DNA of 31,554 bases from a virus, in the UHGV virus genome UHGV-0071094; one strand, given 5' to 3'. The notes beneath the pieces were generated by a model. That model saw only the letters and a list, made by a program, of their open reading frames with translations, was not told where the DNA came from and did no database searches. The stretch's first letter is position 1; the number at the start of each line of letters is the position of its first letter. This document shows positions 732 to 31,554 of this stretch, piece after piece. The translations under genes and the position numbers were made by a program.

Positions 732-749
732 AATATTAGGTAAAATAGA

Positions 750-11009: not shown

Positions 11010-11011
11010 AA

Positions 11012-12082: not shown

Positions 12083-13345
12083 CTAATTCATTTTCTTTAT
12101 TCTCTGGGCGAATTCAAACGGTGTAATGTGTTCTTTTCTGTTGGCATTAAGGTAGTCAGCCCACCATTGTAACATGAGTTTTCTCTCTTCGAGATGTTCC
12201 GCTTTGTGGATATATGCTGCCCGAACCGAGTTACGCTCTTGGTGGCTCATTTGACGTTCTACGGCGTCTCTTGACCATAACCCAGATTCGATTAATGCAC
12301 TACAAGCCATAGTTCGAAAACCGTGACCACAAACTTCAGCTTTCGTGTCGTAACCCATGGTGCGAAGAGCCTTGTTAACAGTGTTTTCGCTGATTGGTTT
12401 GTCATCGCGACTAAAACCAATGAACATAAGATCCTTTTCTCCACTTATAGCTTGGAGCCTTTTAAATAATACTACAGCCTGCTTACTTAGCGGCACAAGA
12501 TGAGGGGTTTTCATTTTTGAGCCCCTATTTGAATACTTAACCCCCTCCAATTCTCGTCTTTCTGCAGGGATTGTCCATAAGGAGTTTTTGAAATTCACCT
12601 CAGACCAACGAGCGAATCTAAGTTCACTTGAACGGATGAAAGTCAGTAGAGTTAATTGAACTGCTATTTGAGTGATACCTTTCCCTTTATAGGCATCAAT
12701 CCGTTTGAGAAGCTCAGGAAGTCGTTCGAGGGGAAGGGCAGGGCGGTGATTACTCTTGGCAGTGGTTACAGCGCCTGCGAGGTCGTAAGCTGGGTTTTGG
12801 TCAATCAAAGCATTGTGAACAGCATACCGCATGATGGCAGTGATTCTTTGTTGTAAACGGGCAGCAAGTTCAAGATGTCCAGTTTCCTCTGCTTTTTTCA
12901 GAGGAACAAGTAAATCACGAGTTTTAAGCTCACTAATGTTCCGCTTACCGATAACAGGAAATACATGAGTGATCAGGCTGTTTAATACGGTAGTTCTGTG
13001 ACTGTCTGACCAGGTTCTGTTGCTTGAGTGCCAGTCTCTGGCAACAGTTTCAAAAATGAGTAAGCCTTTCTCTTCAATCTTTTCTGTTTTTCGCTTTTCG
13101 CCAGGGTCAACATTGTTGGCAATGAGTTGCCTTGCTTCTTCTCTTCTACGACGAGCTTCTGCTAAAGACACTTCGGGATAAACACCAAGCGCCAACATTT
13201 TTTGCTTACCAGAAAAGCGATATTGAAGCCGCCAGTATTTTGAACCCGTAGGGTGAACCAGGAGATGCATACCATCCCCATCTGTTAACTTGACGGGCTT
13301 TTCAGTAGGTTTCGCATTTCTGACTTTTACCTCAGTTAGTGCCAT
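12083..13345 (-). CDS. P4/CP4-57-type tyrosine integrase (Arm-DNA-binding DUF4102 plus catalytic domain)
   Basis: 420-aa ORF; N-terminus MALTEVKVRNAKP...KLTDGDGMHLLV...GSKYWRLQYRF typical of the P4-like integrase arm-binding domain; C-terminal HGFRTMA...AAY...LMLQWWADYL catalytic motifs. Sits at the AT-rich/GC-normal boundary. Confidence 0.9.
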   Translation of the reverse strand: MALTEVKVRNAKPTEKPVKLTDGDGMHLLVHPTGSKYWRLQYRFSGKQKMLALGVYPEVSLAEARRRREEARQLIANNVDPGEKRKTEKIEEKGLLIFETVARDWHSSNRTWSDSHRTTVLNSLITHVFPVIGKRNISELKTRDLLVPLKKAEETGHLELAARLQQRITAIMRYAVHNALIDQNPAYDLAGAVTTAKSNHRPALPLERLPELLKRIDAYKGKGITQIAVQLTLLTFIRSSELRFARWSEVNFKNSLWTIPAERRELEGVKYSNRGSKMKTPHLVPLSKQAVVLFKRLQAISGEKDLMFIGFSRDDKPISENTVNKALRTMGYDTKAEVCGHGFRTMACSALIESGLWSRDAVERQMSHQERNSVRAAYIHKAEHLEERKLMLQWWADYLNANRKEHITPFEFAQRIKKMN

Positions 13346-13520
13346 TGTGACCTCCTGATGATGGTATCTGCATTATCGAACTTACAATACCAACAGTTAT
13401 ACCAACAAAACAAGCTGGATGTCCGTATATCCCAACAGTCCTTGGTAGACCATGGTTAAAGTGTACTTCATTGAAATGATTGGGAAAAATAGACTTTGAT
13501 ATACTTCGGTAGACAGGGTT

Positions 13521-13536
13521 CTGGCGTCCCCTGCAG
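13521..13536 (-). other. Candidate prophage attR core (tRNA 3'-end-like sequence)
   Basis: Minus strand reads CTGCAGGGGACgCCA, resembling the acceptor-stem 3' end plus CCA of tRNA-Arg (argW as I recall it: ...CCTGCAGGGGACACCA); located between the excisionase and the next integrase, where an attR is expected. Confidence 0.4.
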
Positions 13537-13609
13537 ACATCTACTTGAGGCAGCAGGGGATTGATTAGAATGGTATTTTTTAGATGTGAGAAATATTTTA
13601 CCCGCTATT

Positions 13610-13810
13610 TTACCCATTGGCGCGGCTTAAGAGCTTATTTTTGAATTCACAATGGTCACGATATAACCATCTTGCTCGCCCGTGGATAACTTTGGCTTTA
13701 GGCAGGTCTCCGGACTTAATCCGGTCATAGATGAAGGTTTTACCGAAGCCAGTATCGGCCATGATGAATTTCAAATCAACCAGGGAATCAGGCTGTAGTT
13801 CGTGTTGCAT
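13610..13810 (-). CDS. torI: AlpA/TorI-family excisionase (winged-helix recombination directionality factor)
   Basis: 66-aa ORF (MQHELQPDSLVDLKFIMADTGFGKTFIYDRIKSGDLPKAKVIHGRARWLYRDH...) with AlpA-like HTH; position at the prophage end opposite the intS-like integrase matches the KplE1 layout. Gene symbol by analogy, not verified. Confidence 0.75.
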   Translation of the reverse strand: MQHELQPDSLVDLKFIMADTGFGKTFIYDRIKSGDLPKAKVIHGRARWLYRDHCEFKNKLLSRANG

Positions 13811-13828
13811 GAGTGCTATCTCCGAATA

Positions 13829-13844
13829 GGGAATCGAACCTGCA
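13829..13844 (-). other. tRNA T-arm-like 16-mer (TTGCAGGTTCGATTCC) immediately upstream of the excisionase gene
   Basis: Minus-strand sequence matches the T-stem/T-loop (GGTTCGATTCC) region of a tRNA and diverges where the acceptor 3' strand would begin. Confidence 0.45.
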
Positions 13845-13852
13845 AATCAGGC

Positions 13853-13876
13853 AAGAAAAAACCGCCATCAGGCGGC
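13853..13876 (-). terminator. Rho-independent terminator-like hairpin with U-run (minus strand)
   Basis: GCCGCC-TGAT-GGCGG stem-loop followed by TTTTTTC on the minus strand, overlapping the stop of the small ORF upstream. Confidence 0.4.
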
Positions 13877-14035
13877 TTGGTGTTCTTTCAGTTCTTCAAT
13901 TCGAATATTGGTTATGTCTGCATGTGCTATCTGCGCCCATATCATCCAGTGGTCATAGCAGTCATTGATGTTCTCTGCTTCGATAACTCTGTTGAATGGT
14001 TCTCCATTCCATTCACCTGTGACTCGGAAGTACAT
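13868..14035 (-). CDS. Small hypothetical phage protein (55 aa)
   Basis: Minus-strand ORF MYFRVTGEWNGEPFNRVIEAENINDCYDHWMIWAQIAHADITNIRIEELKEHQAA preceded by a GGAGA RBS; below the ORF-track size cut-off; the overlapping plus-strand ORF 13802..14050 is judged spurious. Confidence 0.35.
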   Translation of the reverse strand: MYFRVTGEWNGEPFNRVIEAENINDCYDHWMIWAQIAHADITNIRIEELKEHQAA

Positions 14036-14222
14036 TTATCATCTCCATAAAACAAAACTCGCCGTAGCGAGTTCAGATAAAAGAAATCCCCGCGAATGCG
14101 AGGATTGTTAGTTGCGCTCTGCTGCTGCCTTAGCCATTACCATATCCACCAAACTTCACCAGACATGATTCTCGCAATCACTATCATCACCAAAGTGATA
14201 ATCACAACTTTAACTGGCGGCA

Positions 14223-14951
14223 TCATTCACCATCCTGCTGCGGTGCTGCTGGCAGTGGCATCCAGTGGGTAATACTACCTGGATATAAACTCTTTGCTGG
14301 CCCCCAGTAGCCATCTGTATTAACACGCATAACCTCACAGCCATCAAAACCATCAGTTACAAGAACGTATTCATAAGGTTCCGGCATCCTTTCGCTTACC
14401 GGAATCCAACTATCCGGAGTTCCCGGAGAGTTGCCATTTACATCGAAGTTTGGCTCTGCGTCCTGAACCAGGAGGATGTAACCATTCTTGGCTGTATCAA
14501 GTTCTAACGCCTCGGTGACGGTGCCGAAATAGCGATTGCCTAAATCAGCATCACAAGTGCTTACATCAATGGAAACTTCCATGCCCTCGATTAATTCTGG
14601 CAAGTTGTAAGTTTGGCTTACAGGTTCGGCTTCCAGTTCTGCTATGCGCTTTTTTGCTGCTTCCAGCTCGCCAAGCAGCGCCAAGACGGTAGCCGGATTG
14701 GCTGCGGCGATGAATTCAGCATTGGCCTGCTGTTCCATTTGGAAATCTTCATCGAAACCGCTTTCAGGATGCGCTCCTTCAATTCTGCAAATGGGAATAT
14801 ATCCAGCAGCCTCGCGATGAATTAGCGCATCATCACAATCAAATCGGCTCTCTCCATATTCGAGCGACCACTCACCACACGTTGCTTTTTCTGCCGCTTC
14901 ACGCAGTGCCTGGTAATTAATTTCGCTCACTGTTTGCCTCCTTTGCGCCAC
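14223..14951 (-). CDS. Ead/Ea22-like protein with C-terminal DUF551 domain
   Basis: 242-aa ORF; C-terminal ...[35 protein letters not shown]...THWMPLP resembles DUF551; typical lambdoid early-left accessory gene. Confidence 0.7.
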
Positions 14952-15550
14952 ATCGCATTCAGATATTTGTTGTCATTAACAGAACCGAAACTCTTTCTTT
15001 TAAGCAATTCCTCTCTCGATGGCATTGGCTTTACGCGTTGGCGAATAATCATTTCTGCCGGAAGAATGCCGGGATTGTATGCAAGTCCTCTCATGGTAAA
15101 TTCCTCAGTCATTACTGATAGCGCCATAGCGTGAGCGGTAATTACGCAGGCGCGGGTCAATTTCAGGGAAGTGGGTATATCTGCATCTTTCGCATCATCA
15201 ATGCCGAACAAACCATTGAGGCAATACTTGCGTGCATAAGAGCTTGTAGCTCCAGTAACTTGTGCAGAATCCATTCCTTTCTTGCTTTCTTCCTCTCGTG
15301 CAAGAGCGGTTGCCGTATGACTGTTTTCGCCATCGGTAATAGTTGCCGTGGCTTTCACATAATACCGATCACCAATCAACACAACTTCATCGCTGATTGA
15401 TAAAAACAGGCCATTCAGTAGCGGCTTAACGCCTTCAAGAATATCTTCGCAGCTTCTGTATTTATATTTACCGAATGAGTTGTACTGATTTTTTGGCGCG
15501 TTCAGATTCTCCTGAATGGCAGCCAGTCTTGCGTAAAATTCTTTGCTCAT
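14927..15550 (-). CDS. erf: ERF-family single-strand annealing protein (P22 Erf-like)
   Basis: Translation from the internal Met ([45 protein letters not shown]...) closely resembles phage P22 Erf as I recall it; the ORF-track start 15580 probably over-extends. Confidence 0.8.
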
Positions 15551-15810: not shown

Positions 15811-15959
15811 TTCCTGCGATACCATGGAAGGTTGATAGCTAATTTCATCTCTTTATTTGCTTCAAGCCACATTTTGGAATCACCAATAAATCTGGCTATT
15901 ACTGCTTTGTTTTGTGCTGCTCGAAGCATCTGGTGATTGATGGCTATTTCATTGCGCAT
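15807..15959 (-). CDS. Kil-like small protein (50 aa)
   Basis: Minus-strand ORF MRNEIAINHQMLRAAQNKAVIARFIGDSKMWLEANKEMKLAINLPWYRRK; the ...RFIGDSKMW... segment resembles lambdoid Kil as recalled; assignment tentative. Confidence 0.35.
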   Translation of the reverse strand: MRNEIAINHQMLRAAQNKAVIARFIGDSKMWLEANKEMKLAINLPWYRRK

Positions 15960-16078
15960 AACGCCTCCAGTTGTTTCTTTGCTGCTCTGATTAATTGTTT
16001 AACTCGGCGTGATAATTCAGATTCGTGCGGGTAGAAAGCGGACATGACGCCGCTACCCGCGAGCTGAAAGTGCATCAT
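15944..16078 (-). CDS. cIII-like small protein (44 aa)
   Basis: Internal start of ORF 15944..16183 gives MMHFQLAGSGVMSAFYPHESELSRRVKQLIRAAKKQLEALCAMK, resembling lambda CIII (..AG....ESxL.R....L); AAGGAG RBS upstream. Confidence 0.4.
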   Translation of the reverse strand: MMHFQLAGSGVMSAFYPHESELSRRVKQLIRAAKKQLEALCAMK

Positions 16079-16619
16079 GGGTAACTCCTTATATTTGATT
16101 GCATAACGAAAACGCCTCGAGTGAAGCGTTATTGGTATGCGGTAAAGCCGATGGAAGAATGGTTTCTTCTCGCAGGTAAGCATGATGCTTGCTGTTCTGG
16201 AATACGGAATCGAAGACGATGAAATGGCTGAATTGACTAAGCGGCTTGCCGATTACCTGACAAAAGAAAAAGCCCCGAAGAACGGCGAATTCTTCGAGGC
16301 CTGATGTAGAAAGACTGGATCAATCCACAGGAGTAATTATGACAAAACGTCGTAAGAAATACCAGGAAAAAGAAGAGATTCGACACCCTGATTCACCTGA
16401 GGGATTAGTGGTAGCCGCAGCAAATAACAGGGCGTTCGCAGAGCGCCTTGTTGGTGTTTACAGACTAGCCAAAGCAGGAGTGAAACATGGGCGTCGTTAA
16501 GTTAGCTGATTACAGGCATATCCAAACCGTATGCCTGTTGGTAGTGGTAACCAGTTGGCGAAGTGGAACGGTTGGAATTACTTCCACCGAAAGGAACCTT
16601 GCGATAACGGGAGCGAATA

Positions 16620-18038
16620 ATGCCGATTCAGCAACTTCCGCTTATGAAAGGTGTCGGCAAAGACTTTCGAAACGCCGACTATATCGACTATCTGCCAGTG
16701 AATATGTTGGCTACACCCAAAGAAATACTCAACAGCAGCGGATATCTTCGTTCATTCCCGGGCATTGCCAAACGCTCTGATGTGAACGGTGCATCTCGCG
16801 GCGTCGAGTACAACATGGCGCAGAATGCTGTTTATCGTGTGTGTGGTGGCAAGCTGTACAAAGGAGAAAGTGAAGTCGGTGACGTTGCCGGAAGTGGTCG
16901 TGTATCAATGGCGCATGGTCGGACATCACAGGCAGTAGGCGTTAATGGTCAACTGGTCGAGTATCGCTATGATGGCACGGTTAAAACCGTCTCAAACTGG
17001 CCTACAGACAGCGGATTCACGCAGTATGAGTTAGGTTCAGTCCGCGACATTACGCGCTTACGTGGGCGTTATGCGTGGTCAAAAGACGGCACTGATTCAT
17101 GGTTTATCACTGACCTTGAAGACGAATCGCATCCTGACCGCTACAGCGCACAATATCGTGCTGAGTCTCAGCCTGACGGCATCATCGGCATCGGAACATG
17201 GCGAGACTTCATCGTCTGCTTTGGTTCATCGACGATTGAATATTTCTCCCTGACTGGCGCAACAACTGTTGGTGCTGCTTTGTATGTCGCACAGCCATCA
17301 CTGATGGTGCAGAAAGGCATTGCCGGAACTTACTGCAAAACGCCATTCGCTGATTCGTATGCGTTTATCAGCAATCCGGCAACGGGTGCGCCGTCTGTAT
17401 ACATCATCGGATCCGGTCAGGTGTCACCAATCGCCAGCGCGAGCATTGAGAAAATTCTCCGCTCCTACACTGCTGATGAACTGGCTGATGGTGTGATGGA
17501 GTCTCTGCGATTTGATGCGCATGAGCTGCTGATTATCCATCTTCCGCGCCATGTTCTGGTGTACGACGCATCTTCAAGCGCCAATGGTCCGCAATGGTGT
17601 GTACTGAAAACAGGCCTGTATGACGATGTGTATCGCGCTATCGACTTCATTTACGAAGGCAATCAGATAACGTGCGGCGATAAGCTGGAATCCGTGACCG
17701 GGAAATTGCAATTCGATATCAGCAGCCAGTACGACAAGCAACAGGAACATCTGCTGTTTACTCCACTCTTCAAAGCAGATAACGCCAGAGTTTTCGACCT
17801 TGAGGTTGAATCGTCAACTGGCGTTGCGCAGTACGCTGACCGCCTGTTCCTCTCTGCAACCACTGACGGCATCAATTACGGGCGTGAGCAGATGATTGAG
17901 CAGAATGAACCGTTCGTTTACGACAAACGCGTTTTGTGGAAGAAAGTAGGGCGCATCAGGAAAAACATTGGCTTCAAATTGCGCGTTATCACTAAGTCAC
18001 CTGTCACTCTGTCTGGCTGCCAGATAAGGATTGAGTAA
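16620..18038 (+). CDS. P22 gp10-like tail/head-completion protein
   Basis: 472-aa ORF; same length as P22 gp10 and N-terminus [46 protein letters not shown] closely resembles it. Confidence 0.85.
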
Positions 18039-18886
18039 TGGCTGATTCGAATCTTAATGTGCCGGTAATCATTCAGGCTACACGACTCGACACATCAGTC
18101 CTTCCGCGTAATATCTTCTCGCAGTCGTATCTGCTTTACGTTATCGCACAGGGAACTGATGTTGGTAACGTGGCTAACAAAGCCAACGAGGCCGGACAGG
18201 GCGCTTATGATGCACAGGTCAGGAACGATGAGCAGGATGTGATTCTCGCTGACCATGAGCAGCGAATTTCTGCTGCGGAAGCAACGCTTGTTAATCATGA
18301 GGAGCGAATCAGCCAGGCAGAATCAACTCTTCAGGAACATGAAACGCGAATCGCTCAGAATGAAAGCGATATTGCGTCGCTTGATACCAGAGTTCAGTCG
18401 CTGGAATCGCAGGTTTCAGACCATGAATCGCGCATTGATGCTCTGGAGTATGCCACTACTCGCAAGAAGTCAGAGGTTGTTTACTCTGGCGTATCAGTAA
18501 CCATTCCGACAGCGCCGACCAACCTTGTTAGCCTGCTGAAAACGCTCACGCCGTCATCAGGATCGTTGGCACCATTCTTCGACACCGTTAACAACAAGAT
18601 GGTTGTGTTCAACGAGAACAAAACCTTGTTCTTCAAGCTGTCGATCGTCGGGACGTGGCCCAGCGGAACCGCCAACAGGTCAATGCAGCTAACATTTTCC
18701 GGTTCTGTTCCTGACACACTGGTAAGCAGTCGCAACTCGGCGACAACAACCGACAACATCCTGTTAGCTACGTTCTTCAGCGTGGATAAAGACGGCTTTC
18801 TTGCCACAAATGGCAGTACGTTAACCATTCAGTCAAATGGTGCGGCGTTTACTGCCACAACCATCAAGATAATCGCGGAGCAGTGA
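18038..18886 (+). CDS. Tail needle protein (gp26-like) with C-terminal knob, Sf6-type
   Basis: ATG overlaps the gp10 stop (TAATG); N-terminus [36 protein letters not shown] conserved with P22 gp26; heptad-like coiled-coil middle; 282 aa with a ~130-aa C-terminal extension, as in Sf6-type needles. Confidence 0.8.
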
Positions 18887-19341
18887 TGATTCAGTTCAAA
18901 CAAACGCGAAACATCGACCTGATCGAAGCAGTCGGAAATCACCCTGACATTATCGCCGGTAGCAACAACGGTGATGGATACGACTACAAGCCTGAATGCC
19001 GTTACTTTGAGGTTAACGTGCACGGTCAGTTTGGCGGCATTGTTTACTATCAGGAAATTCAGCCGCTTACATTCGATTGCCACGCCATGTACCTGCCAGA
19101 GGTTCGCGGCTTCAGCAAGGAAATCGGGATGGCGTTCTGGCAATACATTCTGACTAACACCACCGTTCAGTGCGTCACATCGTTCGCCGCACGCAAATTC
19201 CGCCACGGGCAGATTTACTGCGCAATGATTGGCCTTAAGCGTGTCGGAACCATCAAGAAATACTTCAAAGGCGTGGATGACGTGACTTTTTACAGCGCCA
19301 CACGCGAAGAACTAATCGACTTCCTGAATCACGGGAGATAG
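18883..19341 (+). CDS. P22 gp14-like virion assembly protein
   Basis: 152-aa ORF in the conserved position between the needle and gp7 genes; overlapping start/stop. Confidence 0.65.
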
Positions 19342-19343
19342 CC

Positions 19344-20036
19344 ATGTTATATGCATTTAAGCTGGGCAGAAAACTGCGCGGCGAGGAACCTTGGTGCCCT
19401 GAAAAAGGCGGGAAAGGTGGTAGCTCTGATAAAAGCGCAAAGTATGCAGCAGAAGCCCAGAAGTATGCCGCAGACCTGCAAAATCAGCAGTGGCAGACGA
19501 TCATGAAAAACCTTGCTCCGTTCACGCCTCTTGCGGAGCAGTATGTTAACCAGCTTCAGAACCTTTCCAGTTTAGAAGGTCAGGGGCAGGCACTTAATCA
19601 GTATTACAACTCTCAGCAGTATAAAGACCTTGCAGGTCAGGCTCGTTACCAGAGTCTTGCTGCTGCGGAGGCTACGGGAGGACTTGGTTCGACAGCCACA
19701 AGCAATCAACTGGCTACGATCGCGCCGACTCTCGGTCAGTCGTGGTTATCAAACCAGATGAGCAATTACAACAATCTGGCAAACGTTGGGCTTGGTGCTC
19801 TGCAAGGTCAGGCAAACGCCGGGCAGACGTACGCCAACAACATGAGCAGCATTGCACAGCAAAGCGCAGCTCTTGCCGCTGCTAATGCCAACAAACCATC
19901 AAGTCTTCAGACAGCAATTAGTGGCGGAACGTCTGGTGCGATTGCCGGTGCAGGTCTTGCCAGCCTTTTGGGAACATCAACACCTTGGGGCGCTGGCATT
20001 GGTGCTGGTATCGGATTGCTTGGCTCGTTGTTTTAA
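19344..20036 (+). CDS. Ejection protein, P22 gp7-like
   Basis: 230-aa ORF, Gln/Ala/Gly-rich with a glycine-rich hydrophobic C-terminus; gene order and size match P22 gene 7. Confidence 0.75.
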   Translation: MLYAFKLGRKLRGEEPWCPEKGGKGGSSDKSAKYAAEAQKYAADLQNQQWQTIMKNLAPFTPLAEQYVNQLQNLSSLEGQGQALNQYYNSQQYKDLAGQARYQSLAAAEATGGLGSTATSNQLATIAPTLGQSWLSNQMSNYNNLANVGLGALQGQANAGQTYANNMSSIAQQSAALAAANANKPSSLQTAISGGTSGAIAGAGLASLLGTSTPWGAGIGAGIGLLGSLF

Positions 20037-20045
20037 GGGGTAATC

Positions 20046-21452
20046 ATGGCTACTTGGCAAGGATCAAATGGCGGATTGTTGGCTGGTATCGGCGGCGTCA
20101 ACTCAAACGCTCCGAGCGTAAATGACATCGGCAACACGCTTCAGCTTATCAGGCAGAACAATGATATTGAGCGTTCAGGCGCTAACAATGTTGGGCTGAC
20201 AGCTTTGCAAGGTCTTTCTGGTATTGCGGGTGTTTTTCAGCAGGAAAAGCAGGCTCAGCGGCAGAAAGAATTTCAGCAGGCATACGCTAATGCTTATGCG
20301 TCTGGTGATCGCGGTGCTTTGCGTCAGTTGGCTACTCAATATCCAGACCAGATTGAATCTGTTCGTAAAGGCATGGGATTCATTGATGAAGACCAGCGCA
20401 ATTCTATCGGCACCTTAGCGGCTGGCGCCCGCCTTGCATCATCGTCTCCAGAAGCAATGCAATCATGGCTGCAAAACAACGCCAAGGAACTGACTCGCGT
20501 CGGTGTTGACCCTAATAACGTTGCTCAGATGTATCAGCAGAACCCTTCAGGATTTGGTGAGTTTGTTGATCACCTTGGAATGGCTGCTCTTGGTCCGATT
20601 GATTACTTCAATGTTCAGGACAAGATGGCTGGTCGTGAGATTGATCGCGGAAAACTTGCAGAGACAATCCGCAGCAATCAGGCTGGAGAAGCACTTCAGG
20701 CGAGAGGGCAAAACCTTTCCTATCAGTCAGCAATGACTGGGCACAATATCGCAGCACAACGCTTGGCTCTGGATCAGCAAGAGTTCGGGTTTAAGATGCA
20801 GCAAGCGCAGGAAAAGGCTCAGCAGTTGATTAGCGAAGCACCTAAGCTGTCAGTAAACATGGAAAAAGGCATCGAGACGGCTGTAAACAATGCTACAGCA
20901 TCATCAAACTCAGCCAATTCTATGAGTGCGCTTGCTCAACAGTTCAGAGCAGAAAAACCAACGACAGGTTTGTTCGGTAACGCACAGAACATGTTCGCAA
21001 AACTTACCGGAAGCGATACAACATTGCGTGATTTGCGCATCCGCCAAAATGCCCTTGTTAACAGTCAGGTTCTTAAATTCCTACCTCCAGGCCCCGCAAC
21101 GGATAAAGACGTTGAGATCGTTCGGCAGGGGGCACCAACTGACATGGATAACCCTGAGACGGTCGCAAGATGGCTTGATGCAATGGCAAACCTTGAGCGA
21201 CGAAACGCGCAGTTTAATGAGTTTAAAGCCGAGTGGATGAGCGCGAATGGCAATCCAGGACAATCGCGTAATGGCGGTCAGATATTGGGGTTGGATGTTA
21301 AAAAAGGTGAATCATTGGGGAGTGCCGTTAAGCGGTATATGTCAATGAATACTGACGCAGCGCCAGCACAAGATTCGACACCTTCAGGAGAACCACGGAA
21401 TCAGGTTGGATCATATACCTCAAAATCAGGCATTCAATTTACGGTGGAATGA
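20046..21452 (+). CDS. Ejection protein, P22 gp20-like
   Basis: 468-aa ORF in conserved synteny (7-20-16); compositional similarity to P22 gp20. Confidence 0.75.
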
Positions 21453-23290
21453 TGAAAGTAACTGCAAACGGTAAGACATTTACCTTTCCTGATGGTACGA
21501 GCACCGAAGATATTGGCAACGCCATTGATGAGTATTATGCTGGTCAGGCTGTTCAGCAACAAACAGTTAATCAGGCCAATAATGCACCAACACGGGAAGA
21601 ACCATCATTGATCCAACAAGCTGGCGATTGGCTCACTGGTGGTCAAAGTGCAGGGCAAATTGCAGAACAGGCTGGTCGTGGTCTGGTAAACATACCATTT
21701 GACGTATTGCAGGGCGGCGCAAGTCTGATTAATGCAATCAGTCAGGGGCTTGGTGGACCCAAGGTTTTGGATGATGTTTATCGTCCAGTAGACAGACCGA
21801 CAGACCCCTACGCGCAAGCCGGTGAAACAATTGGTGGGTATTTAGTTCCAGGAGTTGGAACGGCAGGAAGCATGGCTATTGGATCACTGGCAGAGGCCGC
21901 AAATCAGAAAGGCGATTTCGCACAAAATGCAGCTAAAAATGCCGGAGTTAACCTTGCCACTCAGGGTGTTCTTTCCGCAGCAGCAAAGGGAATAGGGCGT
22001 GGAATAACGGCTATAAAAGGTGATATTGCGCCAGAAGTGGCGAAGAAAATTGCCACATCAGAATCGATGGGCGTGACACCAATGACATCTGATGTTATCC
22101 CGCCGAAAAATGCTTTCACTCGCGGCCTAACTCAGGATGCCGAGGGGGCTTTGCTCGGGACAGGCTCAAAGCGAGCGGAGCAATATGCAACGCGTAGTAA
22201 GCTGGTAAGTAATTATTTTGACCGTTTTGGTGAGTACAACCCTGATGATGTGGTGAAATCTCTTACCACCACGTTAAGGGGGCGGAAGGATGCCGCTGGC
22301 GCTGTTATCAATGACGTCACCAATAAAATGGGTAATGCCGCAGTTGATACCACAAATACCATGAATGCTCTGAATACAGCGATCGCAAGACAGGAACGGC
22401 TTGGGACGTCTGCCAATCAAAGCCTGCTTACATCCTTGCGTAACCTACGTGAAGAATTAGCAAACCCTGCAACTGATTTGGATGTTACGTTTGATCTCTT
22501 GCGTCAGCACAGAACAGCATTTAGATCTAATGTTCAGGGAGATGCTATGGTCTTCCCCAACCAGGCAAAAGCAGCTACCAATATGGTAGAGAATGCAATG
22601 TCAAAAGACCTTCGTAACGCAGTTGCTAAAAACCTCGGTGCATCAGACGCAGCAAAATACCTTAAAGCAAATTCCGATTATGCAAACGTTTATAATAAGG
22701 TGCTTAATAAAAACATTGCTAACAAGCTCAACAAGGCAAGCAGTGAAGCCAGTCCTGAACTTATAAATACCGTTGTATTAAGCAGAAAACCATCTGACGT
22801 GAAACGAATATGGAGCGCCCTGGATGATAAAGGGAAAGATGCTATGCGTGCAGCTTACGTCAGCAAAATAGCGGAAAAGGCCGGTGACTCTCCAGCCAAG
22901 TTCATCACTGAAGTTAATAAGCTGAAATCTCAGTCAGGCGGTGAAATTTACAACACTATTTTTTCTGGAAAGCACATGAAAGAGCTTGATGCTCTTCATG
23001 AAGTTCTACAGCAAACAGCAAGGTCAGACACCGCAAATGTAGTAACTCAGACGGGGCAATCACAAGCCAACAGGATAAGGACGATTGGCGCAACTGCGAC
23101 TCTTGGTGTATCAATGGGGCTTGAGGCTGGCTTTGGTGCAATGATGCGTTTGTATGAGTCCAAAGCAGCAAGGAATGCTCTCTTACGTCTGGCAAACACT
23201 AAAGCTGGAACGCCAGCCTATGAAAGAGCGTTGAGTAACGCTGCAAATGCCATCAGGCCGCTGCTTGCTACTGAGGCAACACAGCAGTAA
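21449..23290 (+). CDS. Ejection protein, P22 gp16-like
   Basis: 613-aa ORF; N-terminus [16 protein letters not shown] and size fit P22 gp16; overlaps the gp20 stop. Confidence 0.75.
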
Positions 23291-23314
23291 CGTATGGGGA
23301 ATTGGATTCAATCG

Positions 23315-23704
23315 TTAACATTTTCTTTTTACTTTTCCAACAAAAGCTTTGGTTGAATCCATATTCCCATAACCAGAAATGGTTTTCGACATTAAAACTG
23401 TTCCATTAGGATGTATTACCCATGAGTCGATAACTCGTTGAGTTTCGCCATTCGCGCCGATTCCAATGATGGAGTTTTTAGACAATGCTTTGTAAGCCAT
23501 GCCGCCCGCATCCGTCCCAGAATATGTGATACTGGCATCTTCACCGTTTGTCTTAATGATGAATGTTCCACTAAAACCATCTTCTTCCGGTTGAAAATTA
23601 TTTCGTTCTGAATAGCTTATTCCGTGCATATCTCCAACGACCCAGCACTCTGCTGAGACAGAAAACGAGAAGACAAGGAAAGCCATTGCTATAATCAATT
23701 TCAT
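23315..23704 (-). CDS. Hypothetical secreted protein (129 aa), moron in the sieA position
   Basis: N-terminal signal peptide MKLIIAMAFLVFSFSVSA; no recognised domain; same strand as and downstream of mnt. Confidence 0.55.
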   Translation of the reverse strand: MKLIIAMAFLVFSFSVSAECWVVGDMHGISYSERNNFQPEEDGFSGTFIIKTNGEDASITYSGTDAGGMAYKALSKNSIIGIGANGETQRVIDSWVIHPNGTVLMSKTISGYGNMDSTKAFVGKVKRKC

Positions 23705-23719
23705 TTTAAGCCCTTATTG

Positions 23720-24055
23720 TTATTGATTCTTTTTGCACGGAAATGTTTTTCCTACTGCTAGGGCGGTTAGTATAACTGCACTCTCATTTCTTGATTCTGG
23801 GTTTTTGTTTAGATATTTCTCAACGATATCGGTGTATTGATACATGTCAACGCCATCAGGAGGACATAGAGAACCAATTAGTATCAATGAGTCAGTTACT
23901 CCGCGCAAATATCCAGTAATGTAAAGCGATGAAAAATCATCACCCTTTTTACCTTGTTGAATGTTGTAAAGAAGGTCATTACCCGTTTGAAGCTCGCGCA
24001 GCTCAGCACTGGAAGAAGAGACAACTGCTAACAAGAACAGTGATAGAAATCTCAT
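23720..24055 (-). CDS. Hypothetical secreted protein (111 aa), moron co-transcribed with mnt
   Basis: Signal peptide MRFLSLFLLAVVSSSSA; two Cys (possible disulfide); start overlaps the mnt stop. Confidence 0.55.
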   Translation of the reverse strand: MRFLSLFLLAVVSSSSAELRELQTGNDLLYNIQQGKKGDDFSSLYITGYLRGVTDSLILIGSLCPPDGVDMYQYTDIVEKYLNKNPESRNESAVILTALAVGKTFPCKKNQ

Positions 24056-24306
24056 TTCAAATCCTTTTCATAAATCTTTTTAAGTGTCTCAAACACTATA
24101 GCCTTGAACTGCTCAGCCTGCTGATCAGCCAAGCGTTCAGCTTCGTCGCGATATCCTGTAATCGGTGATGGTTTTGATAGTGCATCCTGAACGATTTGTA
24201 ATAACTCAGAGTTCATTGACCTTCCGTTAGCCTCGGCTCTTAATTTCAATTTTTCTCTTACTTCCAAAGGCATACGGAAGTTAAAGTGCGGATCATCTCT
24301 AGCCAT
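24052..24306 (-). CDS. mnt: Mnt repressor (Arc/MetJ ribbon-helix-helix family)
   Basis: 84-aa ORF MARDDPHFNFRMP.EVREKLK.RAEANGRSMNSELLQIVQDALSKPSP.TGYR closely resembles P22 Mnt; divergent from arc, with operators between. Confidence 0.85.
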   Translation of the reverse strand: MARDDPHFNFRMPLEVREKLKLRAEANGRSMNSELLQIVQDALSKPSPITGYRDEAERLADQQAEQFKAIVFETLKKIYEKDLK

Positions 24307-24328
24307 GCCATCACTCCAAGTTAGTGTA

Positions 24329-24380
24329 TTGACATGATAGAAGCACTCTACTATATTCTCAATAGGTCCACCGTGGACCT
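24329..24380. promoter_or_regulatory. immI control region: Pant-like promoter with Arc operator and Mnt operator
   Basis: TTGACA (24329-24334) and TATATT (24352-24357) with 17-bp spacing; the 21-bp ATGATAGAAGCACTCTACTAT (24334-24354) matches the P22 arc operator as recalled; the 17-bp palindrome AGGTCCACCGTGGACCT (24364-24380) matches the Mnt operator. Confidence 0.7.
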
Positions 24381-24396
24381 ATATTGTGAGGTGAAC

Positions 24397-24558
24397 ATGA
24401 AAGGAATGAGCAAAATGCCACAGTTCAATTTGCGGTGGCCTAAAGAAGTATTGGATTTGGTACGCAAGGTGGCGGAAGAAAATGGTCGGTCTGTTAATTC
24501 TGAGATTTATCAGCGAGTAATGGAAAGCTTTAAGAAGGAAGGGCGCATTGGTGCGTAA
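24397..24558 (+). CDS. arc: Arc repressor
   Basis: Internal start of ORF 24334..24558 gives a 53-aa protein MKGMSKMPQFNLRWP.EVLDLVRKVAEENGRSVNSEIYQRVMESFKKEGRIGA resembling P22 Arc; GAGGTGA RBS. Confidence 0.85.
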   Translation: MKGMSKMPQFNLRWPKEVLDLVRKVAEENGRSVNSEIYQRVMESFKKEGRIGA

Positions 24559-24626
24559 AGTTGAAGCCCCAACTGCTGTAACAGTCAGGGCTTCGGCATC
24601 AACAAATCGGATTAGGAAATATTGAC

Positions 24627-25505
24627 ATGAAAAGTATAGCAAAGGCACAAAACGATTTCACCATCTTCAAATTCGGCGACAGTGAAATCCGCGTCATCAA
24701 CAAGTGCGGTGAGCCGTGGTTTGTAGCTAAAGATGTTTGTGATGCTTTAGATTTGACTAACTCACGCAAGGCGCTTACTGCACTTGATGACGATGAAAAG
24801 GGAGTAACTTTAAGTTACACCCTTGGTGGTGAGCAGAATCTAAGCATTGTGAGCGAATCAGGTATGTATACATTGGTTCTGCGCTGCCGCGATGCAGTCA
24901 ATAAAGGTTCAGTCCCGCACAAATTCCGCAAGTGGGTAACAGCAGAAGTTCTGCCTTCAATTCGCAAACATGGCGAGTATGTAAAAGGAAAGAAAACCAC
25001 TGTTGAGGAAAGAACACCGCTACGCGATGCAGTAAACATGCTGGTAGGAAAGAAAGGACTTCGCTATGACGATGCATACAATATGGTTCATCAGCGTTTT
25101 GGTATTGACAGCATTGATGAACTTTCAATTGAACAAATCCCGCTGGCCGTAGAGTACATCCACAGGGTAGTGCTTGAAGGTGAGTTCATTGGCAAACAAG
25201 AGAAGAAAACCAACGAGCTTTCTGCAAAAGAAGCAAACAGCCTTGTATGGTTATGGGATTATGCCAACCGCTCACAGGCATTATTCCGCGAACTGTATCC
25301 GGCGCTAAAACAAATTCAATCGAACTATTCCGGCAGATGCTACGACTACGGTCATGAATTCTCGTATGTTATCGGAATGGCGAGAGACGTTTTAATAAAC
25401 CACACACGAGATGTTGATATTAATGAGCCAGACGGACCAACGAATCTTTCCGCATGGATGAGACTTAAGAATAAAGAATTGCCTCATTCAGTACATAACT
25501 ACTGA
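24627..25505 (+). CDS. ant: Antirepressor Ant (Bro-N plus Ant C-terminal domain)
   Basis: 292-aa ORF downstream of arc; N-terminal ...[28 protein letters not shown]... is Bro-N/KilA-N-like; position and size as P22 ant. Confidence 0.8.
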
Positions 25506-25521
25506 CAGATAACCAACGCAA

Positions 25522-25548
25522 CGACCCAGCTTCGGCTGGGTTTTTTTA
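25522..25548 (+). terminator. Rho-independent terminator after ant
   Basis: ACCCAGC-TTCG-GCTGGGT hairpin followed by TTTTTTTAT. Confidence 0.55.
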
Positions 25549-25605
25549 TGCCCAAAATTCACCGTAGCTACGCTGCGGCGATTCCTTGTATCTGGAGCAA
25601 ATTAA

Positions 25606-27567
25606 ATGACAGACATTACAGCCAATGTGATCGTATCGATGCCTTCGCAACTCTTCACTATGGCTCGTTCTTTTAAAGCTGTAGCCAATGGCAAAATTTA
25701 TATCGGAAAAATTGACACTGACCCGGTAAATCCAGAAAACCAGATTCAGGTTTATGTAGAGAATGAAGACGGCTCTCACGTTCCTGTTTCACAACCAATC
25801 ATCATTAACGCTGCCGGATATCCGGTATATAACGGACAGATTGCCAAGTTCGTAACTGTGCAAGGCCACTCTATGGCTGTTTATGATGCGTACGGTGCGC
25901 AGCAGTTCTATTTTCCGAATGTGCTGAAGTACGACCCTGATCAATTGGAGCAAAGATTGTCTTCGCCGGATGGAGCCAGTGACATTGGTGTTCAGCCAAG
26001 GGGGAATCTTGCACAGACAATTCTATTTGTAACCCCTGAGCAGTTCGGTGCTATTGGCGATGGGATAGCCCATCCATTATCTGAGCGCTATGCGACCCTT
26101 GCCGCAGCGCAGGCCGTGTATCCTTTCGTGACATCTCTGACGCAGACCATCGACTGGGCTGCATGCCAGGCGGCTGAGAACTATGCGCGAGGTAAAACAG
26201 CGGTAAGATGCCCTTTCTACGCCAAGTATCATCTTGGCAACAACTACCTAAAACTAGGTGAAAAAGCAAAATGGTATGGCAATGATATGCCTAGCCTGGA
26301 CCGTGATTGCACCATGTTTATCAGGGAGGGTAGCTCAGGTGGATTTGGGCAAGATTGTATTGTTAGGGTGGCAACAGCTGCAGAAGTAGGCAGCTCTGAT
26401 GAATTCGTCCGCGGCATAGTATTCAAAGGGTTCCGTCTCACAAGGAATCGCCCAAGAAGGTATAACAGTAAATATGACAGTACGATAGGGTTCCACGCCG
26501 ACCACGCGCTCGGATTGCAAGTAAATATCAGCGTTAACGGATGCGAATATGGCTTCCTTGGTTATGTATGCTGGAATGTTTCAGGGACGGTAAGGTTTGA
26601 TTCTTGCCATAAAAGCCTTTGGTTAGACCCAGCTACGGCTACCCCTGAATACACTCCAGTAGCAGGTGCTGTAATGACGGCTGTTAACCTGAGGGTAGAG
26701 GTCGATGCTTGCGTTTATGGGCCAGTTGTTCGTCGAGCAAAATACGGCAAATTATCAGGATGGGTTGAAGGAATGCTCATTAACCCAACCGTATACCCTA
26801 TTTATGACACTGGAAACGAAACTGCTATTGCACTTACCACGTATAACTGTGACAGCTTTGATGTTACAGAGCTTGGTATAGAAGCCTGGCAGGGCGCCCA
26901 TGTCTATAACTATGGTGGAAGCATATCTGTCAACTTAAGTTGGACTCAGGATTATTACCTGACAAACACAACTGGTAAGCATGGTCCTTACCATGCAATG
27001 TCAGTTCTTATGGGCAATTCTGAGCTGTTTACTCTACCAGCAACAGCTAATGCCCAATATTATAATTTAAATGTTGGTTGCCTTGTAATTCGCAATCTCA
27101 GCGGAGACTGGAGTAATACAACTAATTTCGGCAGCGTATACTTTGCCACGACAGATGCGACATCTCGTACTGTGTTCGAGAACTCTCATGTGTACTTTGG
27201 CAGTAACGTAGCACGATTTGCCCCTGGATTCCTGGGTAATTTCGACACGGTTGGCGGGAGATATATCATCGACGCCATAACCCCAAATGGATATACAAAG
27301 GTAGGCCCTAACTATTTTGTTAAAACATCATGGGGATTAAAGGCGATAAACGGAGGAGATGGAAGGGTATCTATCACCGTTGGCACAGACACACCAACAA
27401 ATCTCAAGTTGCATGACGTGTCTGCATACGTCATTACAAGCACAACATCTCAACCCCTCCCAATAGCTGTAGTGTCGACATCAGATACTGAAATTTCTTT
27501 CCAGACAGCAGTAACTACAACAGCATTCAGCATCAACTGGAAAGCTTACGTAAGCTGGTCTGCTTGA
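25606..27567 (+). CDS. Tailspike protein with P22-type N-terminal head-binding domain and divergent receptor-binding domain
   Basis: 653-aa ORF; first ~115 aa ([11 protein letters not shown]...[35 protein letters not shown]...[24 protein letters not shown]) match the conserved P22 gp9 N-terminus; the remainder is unrelated to P22 gp9 as recalled. Confidence 0.85.
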
Positions 27568-27598
27568 AAAAAGCCCCTAATGGGGCTTTCCTTTTAAG
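27567..27598. terminator. Bidirectional terminator-like hairpin between tailspike and gtr operon
   Basis: AGCCCC-TAAT-GGGGCT stem-loop flanked by A-run and T-run; overlaps the last codons of the converging minus-strand gene. Confidence 0.5.
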
Positions 27599-28911
27599 AT
27601 ATAAACCAAAGATGATATTGACAAGAATACGACCATATCAAAAGAGAATGATAGTCCAAACAGATGCTTTGATAGATCCCGGTAACCTTCTCCTATAAAT
27701 GATATGTAAAATTGAGAAATACCAAAAAGAGAAACTAGAACCACCGGAACGGACATACTCCTTGTCTTTCTGCTAACGAGAAACGCTACCATTATCAAAA
27801 TCATGACAAACATACGAAGGTTTCCGAAAAATCTATCTTTAAGATGCGTCAACTGAGTTGACCATGTGATTCTGTCGTCGACTATGACCTTTATAGTCTT
27901 TGCTACATGAATATAATCAGTTACCAGATTATCTTTCACTACATCATCAAAAGGGAGCATAAAAATGATACTTGGATGCTTGATGTATTCACGTACAGAA
28001 TCAATAAAACTTACGTTCTTATTGTTTTCATAGCATGACTTACCAAGCGTAGAGCGATGCGATCCTTTTTCCTTGTCTAACTGCCCACCCCAAGCATCAA
28101 TTCCAATGCACTTTTCATCAACCCCGCCTGGAAGATCTATATCATTCATCTTTTCGTAAGCGTAAACTCCGTAGTAGGCAGAGTGATACTTATTGAAATT
28201 AGTGGCGTCAGATGAATTCATTACAAAAATAACACATGCAACCTGAGAAATGGCAAGGCCAGCTAAAGCTAATTTCCTGTAGTTGTAAAAATAGAACACA
28301 AATGGCATTGACAGCAACGGTATGTAAAAAAATTGACTTTTGCTCCCGCCGATAACAAAAGCAGATATCACAAACAGTGTGGTGGTAAGTAATGTGTTTT
28401 CCCTTCTTACAAGGCACATAGCCATTAATGGAAGGAAGACCAACACAACCTGCTCCTGGTAAAATGAAGGGAAGAATGCAATGTTAGATGAGGAGCACAA
28501 GAAAATAATCAATATTAATGCAATAGCATAATCCACATATGATATATGCCCTCTATGCAACTTAACATACAGAGAGAAAAGAATTGCAATATAAATCGAC
28601 TTTAATGCTGCTGATAAGATTCTAGCATCAAGTTGGTCTGTAAATAATTTAAAAATACCACCTATAAAGTACAGGATATAAGAGTATGTGCTCATGTAAG
28701 TAAACTTACTAATTCCCCAAAACTCATCATAAAGATGATACTTTAGGTCCATGCTATGCTGGAATGACGGTATTGGCGGCATGAATGGGAATATTGCGCG
28801 ATGGAAATCACCCGTGTTAATCATGTACACGTTTTTTGTAGTAGCAATGACAATTATTGAAAATACAATTAAAATCCATGCTTCTAAACGGACACCAAGA
28901 AATCTATTCAT
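27577..28911 (-). CDS. Type-specific O-antigen glucosyltransferase (GtrC/GtrS-like polytopic membrane protein)
   Basis: 444-aa highly hydrophobic ORF directly downstream of and overlapping gtrB; conserved third position of gtr clusters. Confidence 0.75.
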
Positions 28912-29834
28912 TTCAAATCCCTGTTTTTCTTCAGAATAAATCTTGGACGCTGCTTGGACTCAACATATATCCTGCCAATGTACTCACCAAGAACGCCAAT
29001 GCCAATCAATTGAACCCCGCCAAGGAACAGAATAGAGACAAGCAGGGATGGATATCCACGCACAGCATTGCCGAAGGCCAGTGTGTCGATAATCATCCAA
29101 GCACCGTACAGAAACGCCACTCCAGCTACGAACAGGCCAATGTAAGTCCACATGCGCAACGGGAAAGTAGAGAAGCTTGTGATCCCCTCAAGTGCCAGGT
29201 TCCACAGTTTCCATCCATTAAATTTAGTACTGCCTGCCACTCGTTCTGCGCGTGCATACTCGACAACATCTGTGCGACCGCCAACCCAACTCAGCACACC
29301 TTTCATAAAAAGGTTGCGCTCTGGCATAAGCTTAATGTTTTCGACAACTTCACGGCTCATTAACCGGAAATCGCCGACATTCTCCTCGATCTTTGGGTTG
29401 CTTATTTTGTTGTGCAATTTATAAAACCACTCTGCCGTTTTGCGTTTCAGTCGTCCGTCAGTTGAGCGATCAGTTCGCTTAGCCAGCACCATATCAGAGC
29501 CTGCCTGCCACTTTTCAATCAGATGAGGAATAACCTCAATCGGGTCTTGCAGGTCAACATCAATAGGAATAACGGCATCACCTGTTGCATGGTCTAACCC
29601 TGCAAACAATGCTGGTTCTTTACCAAAGTTTCGTGTAAATGACAGCGGAACAATTAGAGGATCTGAAACGGACAGAGCGTTAATGATTGACTCCGTAGCG
29701 TCTTTGCTACCATCATTTATAAAAACAATTTCCACTTCATATGGCTTCAACTCTTCGAATTCACGTACCGTTTTATAAAAAATTGGTATCGCTTCCTCTT
29801 CATTGAAGACAGGAACGACCAGAGATATCTTCAT
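28908..29834 (-). CDS. gtrB: Bactoprenol glucosyltransferase GtrB (GT2 family)
   Basis: 308-aa [19 protein letters not shown]...FINDGSKD...DVDLQDP... (GT-A DxD), C-terminal transmembrane helices; overlaps gtrA and the type-specific gene. Confidence 0.85.
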
Positions 29835-30346: not shown

Positions 30347-31504
30347 TCACTCCACCTTTTCATCAATCCAGTCCGCCCACCATTGCATCATTTCTCTGCG
30401 CTTATCGAGATACTGAGCATGGTTGTAAATCCCGCGCACAGATCCGCCGTTGGCATGTGCCAGTTGCACTTCAATGGCGTCGGCAGGCCATTCGTGCTCG
30501 TTCATAATCGTGCTGAATTCATGCCTGAATCCGTGACCGCTTTCCAGACCCTCATAGCCGATTCGTTTGATCACAAGTAATACCGCGTTCTCGCAGATTG
30601 GCTTCTTCTTATCGTTACGCCCGGCAAAAACAAACTCTGATACTGGTTTGGTGATGGAGCTTAACGTAGTGAGAAGTTCAACCACCTGGTCCGACATCGG
30701 GACCACATGAATCTTGCGTCCCTTCATCACACTGGCGTCGATAGTGATAATCCTGTTTTCAAAATCGACGTTATTCCATAGCATAGAACGAAGCTCTTTC
30801 GTTCTTAGGGCTGTGTAGCGTAAAACTTTGGTCGCAATGAGCGATACGATACTACCTGAAAATGTTGCCAGTGCTTTATTGAATGCCGGGATCTGGTCTG
30901 CAGGAAGAAACGGGAAGTTCTTCTTGCGGTATCCCTTCATGGCGTCAGCAAGGTCAGGTGCCGGGTTATATTTAGCCCTGCCGGTGACAATAGCGTAACG
31001 GAAAACCTCGCCGCATCTTCTGCGTGCTTTGTTGGCTCGCTCCATTGCACCGCGATCTTCAAATCTGCGGATTACTTCCAGCAGTTGCATCGGCTCAATA
31101 TCCTGAATTTCAAGGCCGCCGATGATAGGTAAAATGTCGTCATCAAACATTTTTGCAAGTTCAGTTGCATAGCCTACTGACCAGACTTGCTTCTTGTGCT
31201 CGTACCATTCCTTGTAAATCGCACTAAAGGAATTGTTGTTAGACGAAGCCTTTTTCGCTTTTACCGGATCGATGCCAACCGAGATGTCTTTCCTCGCAGT
31301 CCATGCTTTATCCCTTGCCTCCTGCAAAGTCATAAGCGGATATTTTCCGACGGTCAGGATTTTCTCCTTACCGTCAATCTTGTAGCGAAGCTGCCATACC
31401 TTTTTCCCGGATACAGGGACATAAAGGTACAGGCCATTACCATCGAGAAGTCGGTATGGTTTTTCTTTCGGCTTTGCTGCTTCAATCTGCTTAACGGTGA
31501 GCAT
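30347..31504 (-). CDS. intS: Prophage tyrosine integrase (IntS/KplE1-like, P4-type)
   Basis: 385-aa from the ATG at 31504 (the ORF track extends to a GTG at 31540); DUF4102-like N-terminus and C-terminal HGFRH...LAH...Y...MMQWWADW motifs; followed by gtrA-gtrB-gtr(type) as in the argW-intS-gtrABS locus of E. coli K-12 as recalled. Confidence 0.85.
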   Translation of the reverse strand: MLTVKQIEAAKPKEKPYRLLDGNGLYLYVPVSGKKVWQLRYKIDGKEKILTVGKYPLMTLQEARDKAWTARKDISVGIDPVKAKKASSNNNSFSAIYKEWYEHKKQVWSVGYATELAKMFDDDILPIIGGLEIQDIEPMQLLEVIRRFEDRGAMERANKARRRCGEVFRYAIVTGRAKYNPAPDLADAMKGYRKKNFPFLPADQIPAFNKALATFSGSIVSLIATKVLRYTALRTKELRSMLWNNVDFENRIITIDASVMKGRKIHVVPMSDQVVELLTTLSSITKPVSEFVFAGRNDKKKPICENAVLLVIKRIGYEGLESGHGFRHEFSTIMNEHEWPADAIEVQLAHANGGSVRGIYNHAQYLDKRREMMQWWADWIDEKVE

Positions 31505-31554
31505 GGGTAAAAATCCGGTGGGTAAAATTATTTTATCCACTTTTTACCCGTCAT

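Follow-up and report, generated by a model that had tools for sequence, protein, structure and literature searches.

A complete P22-type immI region in a defective, repressor-less prophage of Escherichia coli

Immunity in phage P22 is bipartite, with an immC region (c2/cro) partnered by a second region, immI, that holds mnt, arc and ant. Within immI, the maintenance repressor Mnt indirectly stimulates the promoter Pmnt by repressing Pant. Parts of two published accounts set out the circuit, in which Mnt represses arc-ant, Arc represses both promoters and the antisense RNA sar pairs with ant mRNA (PMC11016777; PMC2629481). The antirepressor Ant is dispensable for P22 induction and for both the lytic and the lysogenic pathways, and its known activity depends on a superinfecting phage expressing it (PMC3121763). 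Sections of the epsilon34 genome report describe an 'ant moron', a variable, independently expressed block that runs from the ejection-protein genes to the tailspike gene, and ant morons often hold mnt/arc/ant together with accessory genes (PMC2629481). Here, we analyzed UHGV virus genome UHGV-0071094, a stretch of 31,554 nucleotides (hereafter the window) whose right part is a P22-like (Lederbergvirus-type) prophage of the Escherichia coli argW/IntS type. This prophage carries a complete P22-type immI, has lost immC and is defective; its Ant is probably a silent passenger of recent decay.

The initial annotation, made from the letters alone, had described full-length mnt, arc and ant with a Pant-like promoter and one operator each for Arc and Mnt, and every one of these parts was found where it had been placed (Table 1). 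Gene order, orientation and position between gene 16 and the tailspike gene are those of P22 immI (X01916, AF217253): mnt reads divergently from arc-ant, and the cassette sits in the late operon between a gp16 homologue ending at 23290 and the head-binding domain that opens the tailspike gene. For Mnt, Pfam returned the families Arc at 97.6 bits and Repressor_Mnt at 44.4 bits; the protein shares 80% identity with P22 Mnt, and its N-terminal DNA-reading arm, residues 1-13, is unchanged. Arc matched Pfam Arc at 105.8 bits and is 98% identical to P22 Arc across all 53 aa. Pant is identical to the P22 arc-ant promoter, and Pmnt, identical to the annotated P22 mnt promoter region, overlaps and diverges from it as in P22. 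The Arc operator, ATGATAGAAGCACTCTACTAT, is the exact P22 21-mer, occurs once in the window and had no matches in 100 shuffles. The Mnt operator, AGGTCCACCGTGGACCT, is likewise unique in the window and lies inside a perfect 10+1+10 inverted repeat (24362-24382). It differs from the P22 operator solely in its central base, G to C; the two sites are therefore exact reverse complements of each other, and this flip should be neutral. Over the stretch that runs from the start codon of mnt almost to that of arc, two bases differ from P22 (X01916), namely the operator centre and one base just 3' of the operator. Taken as a sequence comparison, the match to P22 immI is far beyond chance.

While the cassette thus stands as described, the description was incomplete, as it had overlooked the sar RNA and its promoter. 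The predicted sar matched the full length of Rfam RF00262 at 65.6 bits (gathering score 43; E = 1.2e-11), and the -10 element of a Psar-like promoter sits in a AGTATAGCA block that P22 and epsilon34 share with the window, at the place of the annotated Psar of epsilon34. The sequence of the sar 5' stem is wholly unlike the P22 consensus, yet the stem still pairs because it is antisense to a swapped ant leader. By contrast, the sar terminator hairpin (~24557-24598) is common to P22, phage Kapi1 and the window, and it looks like a recombination joint between a P22-type mnt-arc module and a Kapi1-type ant module. Epsilon34 also has an annotated terminator at the same position as the one predicted after ant in the window. 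No LexA box was found at Pant (24307-24396), and thus no SOS route to Ant is apparent; the nearest match with one mismatch falls inside orf111, the gene following mnt, and such matches are about as frequent as chance would give.

Ant itself had been described simply as an antirepressor, and its likeness to P22 Ant extends over only part of the protein. It was assigned to PHROG 245 'anti-repressor Ant' (4.6e-112), and its C-terminal 171 aa, containing a P22_AR_C domain at 103 bits, are 85% identical to P22 Ant. Residues ~1-120 are unrelated to that protein: P22 Ant combines P22_AR_N with P22_AR_C, whereas in the window the N-terminal domain is Bro-N, so that Ant is no orthologue of P22 Ant over its whole length. 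Kapi1, a viable temperate phage at argW, shows 97.8% DNA identity across sar and ant and has the same Bro-N/P22_AR_C mosaic, although its Mnt-like and Arc-like proteins are different alleles from those of the window. Since Kapi1 and full-length prophages carry the mosaic, we conclude from these comparisons that it is a natural allele and not damage. A PDB sequence search with Ant returned no relative and hence no structural argument on which domain contacts repressors.

Full-length relatives hold a second antirepressor-like gene, with a KilAC domain, in the nin region (15847-16569 in the argW prophage of E. coli STEC379, L003; 19612-20334 in prophage L006). By this gene content, argW P22-like prophages normally encode two antirepressor-family proteins, the nin-region copy being deleted in the window.

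Table 1. Features of the window, with positions counted from its first letter
Feature	Position	Strand	Description
mnt	24052-24306	-	maintenance repressor, 84 aa; ribbon-helix-helix N-domain and Mnt tetramerisation domain
arc	24397-24558	+	53-aa ribbon-helix-helix repressor, first gene of ant operon
ant	24627-25505	+	antirepressor, 292 aa; Bro-N (residues 20-110) and P22_AR_C (residues 192-264), Pfam
Pant	24329-24357	+	TTGACA-17-TATATT; promoter scan, 11/12 matches
Pmnt	24362-24334	-	TTGAGA-17-TATCAT; promoter scan, 10/12 matches
Arc operator, 21 bp	24334-24354		between Pant -35 and -10; ATGATAGAAGCACTCTACTAT
Mnt operator, 17-bp palindrome	24364-24380		covers inferred Pant start point; AGGTCCACCGTGGACCT
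sar antisense RNA	24559-24625	-	spans arc-ant spacer and ant ribosome-binding site; Rfam RF00262
Psar-like promoter	24661-24633	-	GTGAAA-17-TATACT, TG-extended -10, within first ant codons; promoter scan
Intrinsic terminator after ant	25523-25542	+	terminator scan, 8-bp stem then T-run; upstream of tailspike gene
orf111	23720-24055	-	secreted Rap1a/Tai4-family protein, 3' of mnt
orf129	23315-23704	-	secreted small beta-barrel protein (predicted), 15 nt downstream of orf111; PHROG 2651
tailspike	25606-27567		next to immI, integrase side
gtrA, gtrB, gtrC-like gene	between intS and tailspike		
intS	30347-31540		integrase, right end of prophage
Ejection/tail genes 16, 20, 7, 14, 26, 10	left of immI and two secreted-protein genes		
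Short gene 4 and cII fragments	left of gene 10		
cIII, kil, truncated erf fused to DUF2737, Ea22/DUF551 gene	left of cII fragment		
torI	13610-13810		excisionase, left end of prophage
Deletion junction A	16146-16182		DNA upstream of cIII joined to 3' part of cII
Deletion junction B	16519-16523		replication gene start joined to gene 4 3' end; 5-bp overlap
Deletion junction C	15178-15183		in-frame ERF::DUF2737 fusion, open reading frame 14927-15550 (-); ~0.85 kb lost
P4-type integrase	12083-13345		island
AbiLi/AbiLii abortive-infection pair	9624-11668		island
YegP/DUF1508	8540-8872		island
Integrase fragment	6647-6955		island
Large serine recombinase and two ParB/RepB-like genes	2857-6192		island
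DUF6119/TIGR04141	750-2357		island
His-Xaa-Ser repeat protein HxsA	18-731		island

The prophage around this switch is a remnant. Its left end is marked by an attR core resembling the argW 3' end at ~13522-13536 and by an excisionase gene (the names intS and torI are taken from RefSeq annotation of relatives), and its argW/IntS-TorI integration module and E. coli host set it apart from P22, which has its own int/xis. We used the full-length STEC379 prophage as the reference for deletions in colinear blastn alignments. At junction A, L003 7204 aligns to window 16150 and L003 12005 to window 16182, so that L003 7204-12005 is lost and with it the N-like gene, the LexA-family cI, cro and the 5' part of cII; tblastn recovered only residues 41-92 of cII, and the junction leaves a C-terminal cII stub of 40 aa. 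To judge by position, PL and PR were presumably removed by the same deletion. At junction B, L003 12346 aligns to window 16523 and L003 27884 to window 16519, and the missing L003 12346-27884 comprises replication, nin, Q, lysis, terminase, portal, scaffold and coat genes and most of gene 4, of which a stub encoding the gp4 C-terminus remains. With junction C, where truncated erf was fused in frame, at least three illegitimate deletions shaped the remnant by this alignment, two of the three junctions showing 5-6 bp overlaps (microhomology) between high-scoring segment pairs (HSPs), and the prophage is defective.

The claim that no c2/cI-like repressor gene survives in the element is borne out. 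No match in the window was obtained by tblastn with P22 c2, cro and 24 or with STEC379 cI, Cro and N-like, nor with 18, 12, 23, 13, 19, 3, 2, 1, 8 and 5 or with STEC379 O, DnaB and Q; Pfam scans of open reading frames in the left-hand part of the window up to 11009 contained no cI-like protein, and immC is deleted relative to the STEC379 prophage. A repressor hidden in that left-hand part, a genomic island described below, was rejected as well, as neither the Pfam scans up to 11009 nor PADLOC scans of most island open reading frames, including 11012-11668, gave a helix-turn-helix-S24 repressor. As far as these searches reach, no primary repressor gene remains in the element and Ant is left, as had been proposed, without a cognate target in cis; by position, there is presumably no repressor-controlled promoter either. 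The loss of immC is viable despite a surviving kil because the repressor and, presumably, its promoters are both gone. Q is absent and the late promoter lay within the same deleted block, leaving the surviving late genes without a known promoter; with portal, gp4 and coat missing, they are of no use. That the window might be a circular or packaged phage genome, as int beside gtrA could suggest, was also rejected, since int-gtrABC-tailspike is the normal order beside tRNA-Arg in prophages of the argW/IntS type.

The receptor-binding part of the tailspike gene and a 444-aa gtrC-like gene (together 25946-28929) have no counterpart in the closest relatives, the prophages of STEC379 and strain 631. 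The conserved tailspike head-binding domain spans 113 aa, and the gtrC-like gene belongs to PHROG 22908 and has no Pfam match. Together, 25946-28929 looks like a serotype-specific module that was swapped in and serves to recognize and modify O-antigen.

Comparison with these relatives suggests that the decay is recent. Window 16519-25946 aligns to STEC379 as one ungapped HSP of 9,428 bp at 97.4% identity, covering genes 10 to 16 and immI, and the 2,321 bp of 23300-25620 match three complete E. coli genomes at 100% and STEC379 at 99.9% identity. Strain 631, the one examined among those three, has a full-length or nearly full-length prophage. STEC379 and 631 share the same orf129-rap1a-mnt-arc-ant cassette (99.9-100% DNA identity), where rap1a denotes the orf111 gene, with the same flanking late genes; they retain HK620-type cI, cro and the replication, lysis and head genes, all of which are missing from the window. 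At the protein level, Mnt and Arc are 100% and Ant 99.3% identical to those of STEC379, and across full-length prophages the figures are 100% for Mnt and Arc and 99-100% for Ant. Close alignment thus revealed no inactivating mutations in the three genes, in agreement with the initial annotation. However, every other surviving late gene (10, 26, 14, 7, 20 and 16) is as intact as immI. Because the whole surviving late block is equally pristine and the cassette matches that of near-intact prophages at 100% identity, the intactness of immI is not evidence of selection, and retention of ant for a function, which had been suggested, is not indicated. The simplest reading of these identities is recent deletional decay, with no selection signal specific to immI.

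The remnant recurs elsewhere. The same remnant with the same junctions is present on two metagenome-assembly contigs, one of them from human gut, at 99.95-99.97% identity, and all six mismatches fall outside immI (6/6). Six contigs of public assemblies code for the exact ERF::DUF2737 fusion protein, which makes a handy lineage marker. Junction A had 0 hits in the GTDB species-representative genomes, and none of the complete E. coli genomes showed the same junctions, the remnant being seen only on contigs of metagenome or run-level assemblies. Nevertheless, the junctions are shared by independent assemblies, which rules out an assembly artefact as the source of the deletions, and on this basis the remnant is a real, circulating E. 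coli lineage.

A second defective argW prophage, in E. coli BA92 (L011, NZ_CP176406.1 1508656-1538449), arose independently through a different deletion, in which a truncated Q is joined directly to DNA just downstream of mnt. Everything from the lysis genes to gene 16 is missing there, as are rap1a and orf129, while the same mnt-arc-ant cassette is still present together with the tailspike gene and intS. What this independent remnant retains is consistent with survival by position, and closeness to the integrase end is suggested to favour survival of immI. KplE1/CPS-53 of E. coli K-12 is another defective P22-like remnant at argW and keeps intS, gtr genes and torI; to our knowledge it has no immI and no ejection-protein genes. 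In both KplE1 and the window, an integrase-proximal block and the excisionase end survive, with the window remnant the larger and younger-looking of the two. Passages of the ant moron survey note degraded or missing ant or arc in some morons (PMC2629481); in the window the reverse holds, with all parts of the switch intact and the rest of the phage degraded.

Putting these observations together, we conclude that the window contains a complete P22-type immI in a repressor-less defective prophage, and we hold with moderate confidence that Ant is a silent passenger of its recent decay. Because the operators and the DNA-reading residues are identical to those of P22 (the flipped central base of the Mnt operator aside), the remnant would be expected to rest with Mnt on and Arc and Ant off. 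Mnt made from Pmnt would occupy its operator over the Pant start, shutting off arc-ant and favouring Pmnt, and sar would block translation of any ant mRNA that escaped; the steady state would then be expression of Mnt, probably with the rap1a-like gene and orf129. Any Ant that was made would have nothing to act on in cis. Ant activity in P22 needs a superinfecting phage and the remnant cannot infect, which further argues that Ant is most probably silent. The cassette would survive as part of an integrase-end block (int, gtr, tailspike, immI and ejection genes) spared by the deletions. We infer from the P22 paradigm both which genes are on or off and that Ant currently plays no role.

Several points weigh against a silent Ant. 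In Kapi1 lysogens, which carry a different mnt/arc allele and an almost identical ant, no mnt transcripts were detected (PMC12922286), so the P22 rules may not transfer to every immI. The remnant has suffered three deletions and contains no point-mutational pseudogene, and the surviving block could therefore be under selection. A rap1a-like gene coupled to mnt is a plausible reason to maintain Pmnt, mnt and the Mnt operator. Finally, the silent state is predicted from the DNA, and the age of the deletions is not measurable.

The rap1a-like gene is the starting point of an alternative that we consider unlikely but worth spelling out, namely that Pmnt drives a lysogenic-conversion operon, mnt followed by the rap1a/tai4-like gene and orf129, and that the cassette persists for that reason. 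The two secreted proteins would protect the host envelope, for instance against Tae4-type type VI secretion amidases; Mnt at its operator would silence the strong Pant so that the overlapping Pmnt fires; and mnt with its operator region would be under selection while arc, sar and ant hitch-hike. The arrangement of the genes suits such an operon. The stop codon of mnt shares the ATGA at 24052-24055 with the start codon of orf111, an AAGGA Shine-Dalgarno sequence lies inside the mnt end, the terminator scan predicted no terminator between the two genes, and orf129, 15 nt further on, encodes a second signal-peptide protein. On these grounds, Pmnt probably drives an operon that expresses orf111 in the lysogen. 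P22 has ORF59 and sieA at this place, and the Rap1a-family and predicted beta-barrel products differ from the accessory genes described for other ant morons in the relevant sections of PMC2629481 (sieA, hkcB/hkcC and open reading frames of unknown function), so that the window represents one more type of moron. Both full-length prophages examined, those of STEC379 and 631, show this same gene arrangement, and ~25 complete E. coli genomes are annotated with a cassette of identical gene content.

The product of orf111 has a signal peptide, as read from its sequence, matches Pfam Rap1a at 55 bits and has the features of a small secreted all-helical protein of the Rap1a/Tai4 fold; its closest homologues outside E. 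coli are from Serratia (75-79% identity). No gene for a Tae4/Ssp1 amidase effector lies beside it, its neighbours being mnt and orf129, so that within the type VI secretion amidase immunity family orf111 would count as an 'orphan'. Among the literature searched, no paper linked Rap1a/Tai4 to P22-like prophages. The orf129 product has a signal peptide, a conserved Cys20 and a C-terminal Cys; its AlphaFold2 model (pLDDT 85) consists entirely of beta-strands after the signal peptide and matched generic 8-stranded barrels with no specific hit, so the beta-barrel is a prediction from generic fold matches. RefSeq lists a shorter, 104-aa version of orf129 without a signal peptide.

Against a conversion operon as the reason for survival, co-transcription is deduced from gene spacing, and a promoter-like site inside orf111 (23850-23823) could drive orf129 alone. 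PADLOC gave no match, and the immunity activity is putative. In addition, BA92 kept mnt-arc-ant while losing rap1a and orf129, showing that rap1a is not required for immI to survive. A broader version, in which the immI maintenance operon has turned into a host-benefit module that shields the lysogen from type VI amidases while the silent Ant stays on as a latent trans-inducer, seems to us distinctly doubtful, although it would, if true, explain an intact switch amid a decaying phage.

The initial annotation had raised the further possibility that Ant acts on other resident prophages. Spelled out, the orphan Ant would be released once Mnt is lost stochastically or is titrated onto the operators of a superinfecting phage, and would then bind LexA/cI-type repressors of co-resident lambdoid or P22-like prophages and induce them. 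There is precedent for such behaviour. P22 Ant inactivates the non-cognate repressors of phages L, lambda and 21, and in Salmonella polylysogens trans-acting antirepressors coordinate induction, with the Gifsy antirepressors GfoA, GfhA and GftA and FsoA of Fels-1 inactivating repressors that include documented non-cognate targets; that P22 Ant might couple induction between prophages has itself been put forward in print as speculation (PMC3121763). In the cryptic prophage Qin, the Rem-DicA pair similarly illustrates that an antirepressor from a cryptic prophage can derepress prophage genes (PMC10448788). In the present family, nearly the same cassette (Mnt and Arc identical, Ant 99%) occurs with two cI-type repressors, the 215-aa protein of BA92 and the 238-aa HK620-type protein of STEC379 and 631, that are only 33% identical, which suggests that Ant is either broad in range or unmatched to its partner. 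The ant open reading frame, ribosome-binding region and terminator are all intact. However, three layers of repression still stand, with Mnt, Arc, their operators and sar all intact, and Pant has neither a LexA box nor any other recognizable inducible input. The Gifsy, Fels-1 and Rem antirepressors, by contrast, are under LexA or prophage-repressor control, have been shown to be active and belong, as far as tested, to families unrelated to Ant. P22 Ant is made on infection and not from an established prophage, and the remnant cannot infect. As the N-terminal domain differs from that of P22 Ant, the P22 specificity data may not transfer either. Trans-induction by this Ant is therefore improbable.

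Most improbable of all is that Mnt from the remnant, along with any Arc produced, acts in trans on P22-like phages that enter the cell with the same operators, altering the lysis-lysogeny outcome or read-through into the tailspike gene in a weak immunity-like or anti-phage role: cross-regulation is physically plausible, given operators that match those of P22 and are widespread in E. coli prophages, deletion of immI from P22 lowers lysogeny frequency and raises lysis (PMC11016777), and the ant moron influences transcription into the tailspike gene according to parts of the epsilon34 report (PMC2629481), but repressing an invader's ant should favour its lysogeny rather than exclude it, the effect would be limited to phages with the same Mnt operator, and there is no evidence of selection.

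Beyond the prophage, window 1-13345 is a separate genomic island that integrated in tandem at the prophage attR. The region joining island, attR and torI (window 9500-14100) is present in 43 complete E. coli genomes.

By its sequence, then, the locus is the known P22 immI in an uncharacterised allele combination, with P22-type mnt, arc and operators, a Bro-N Ant and a rap1a-coupled mnt, set in a decayed prophage. The switch is a textbook one, and its survival in a repressor-less remnant is the expected product of recent deletional decay. As a natural genotype of gut E. coli in which immI is present and immC absent, it would allow the role of Ant to be tested without its cognate repressor, although such a genotype is also easily engineered. 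The more useful lead is the translational coupling of a maintenance-repressor gene to a gene of the Rap1a/Tai4 fold, a hint that the lysogenic-conversion cargo of P22-like prophages in E. coli may include orphan type VI amidase immunity.

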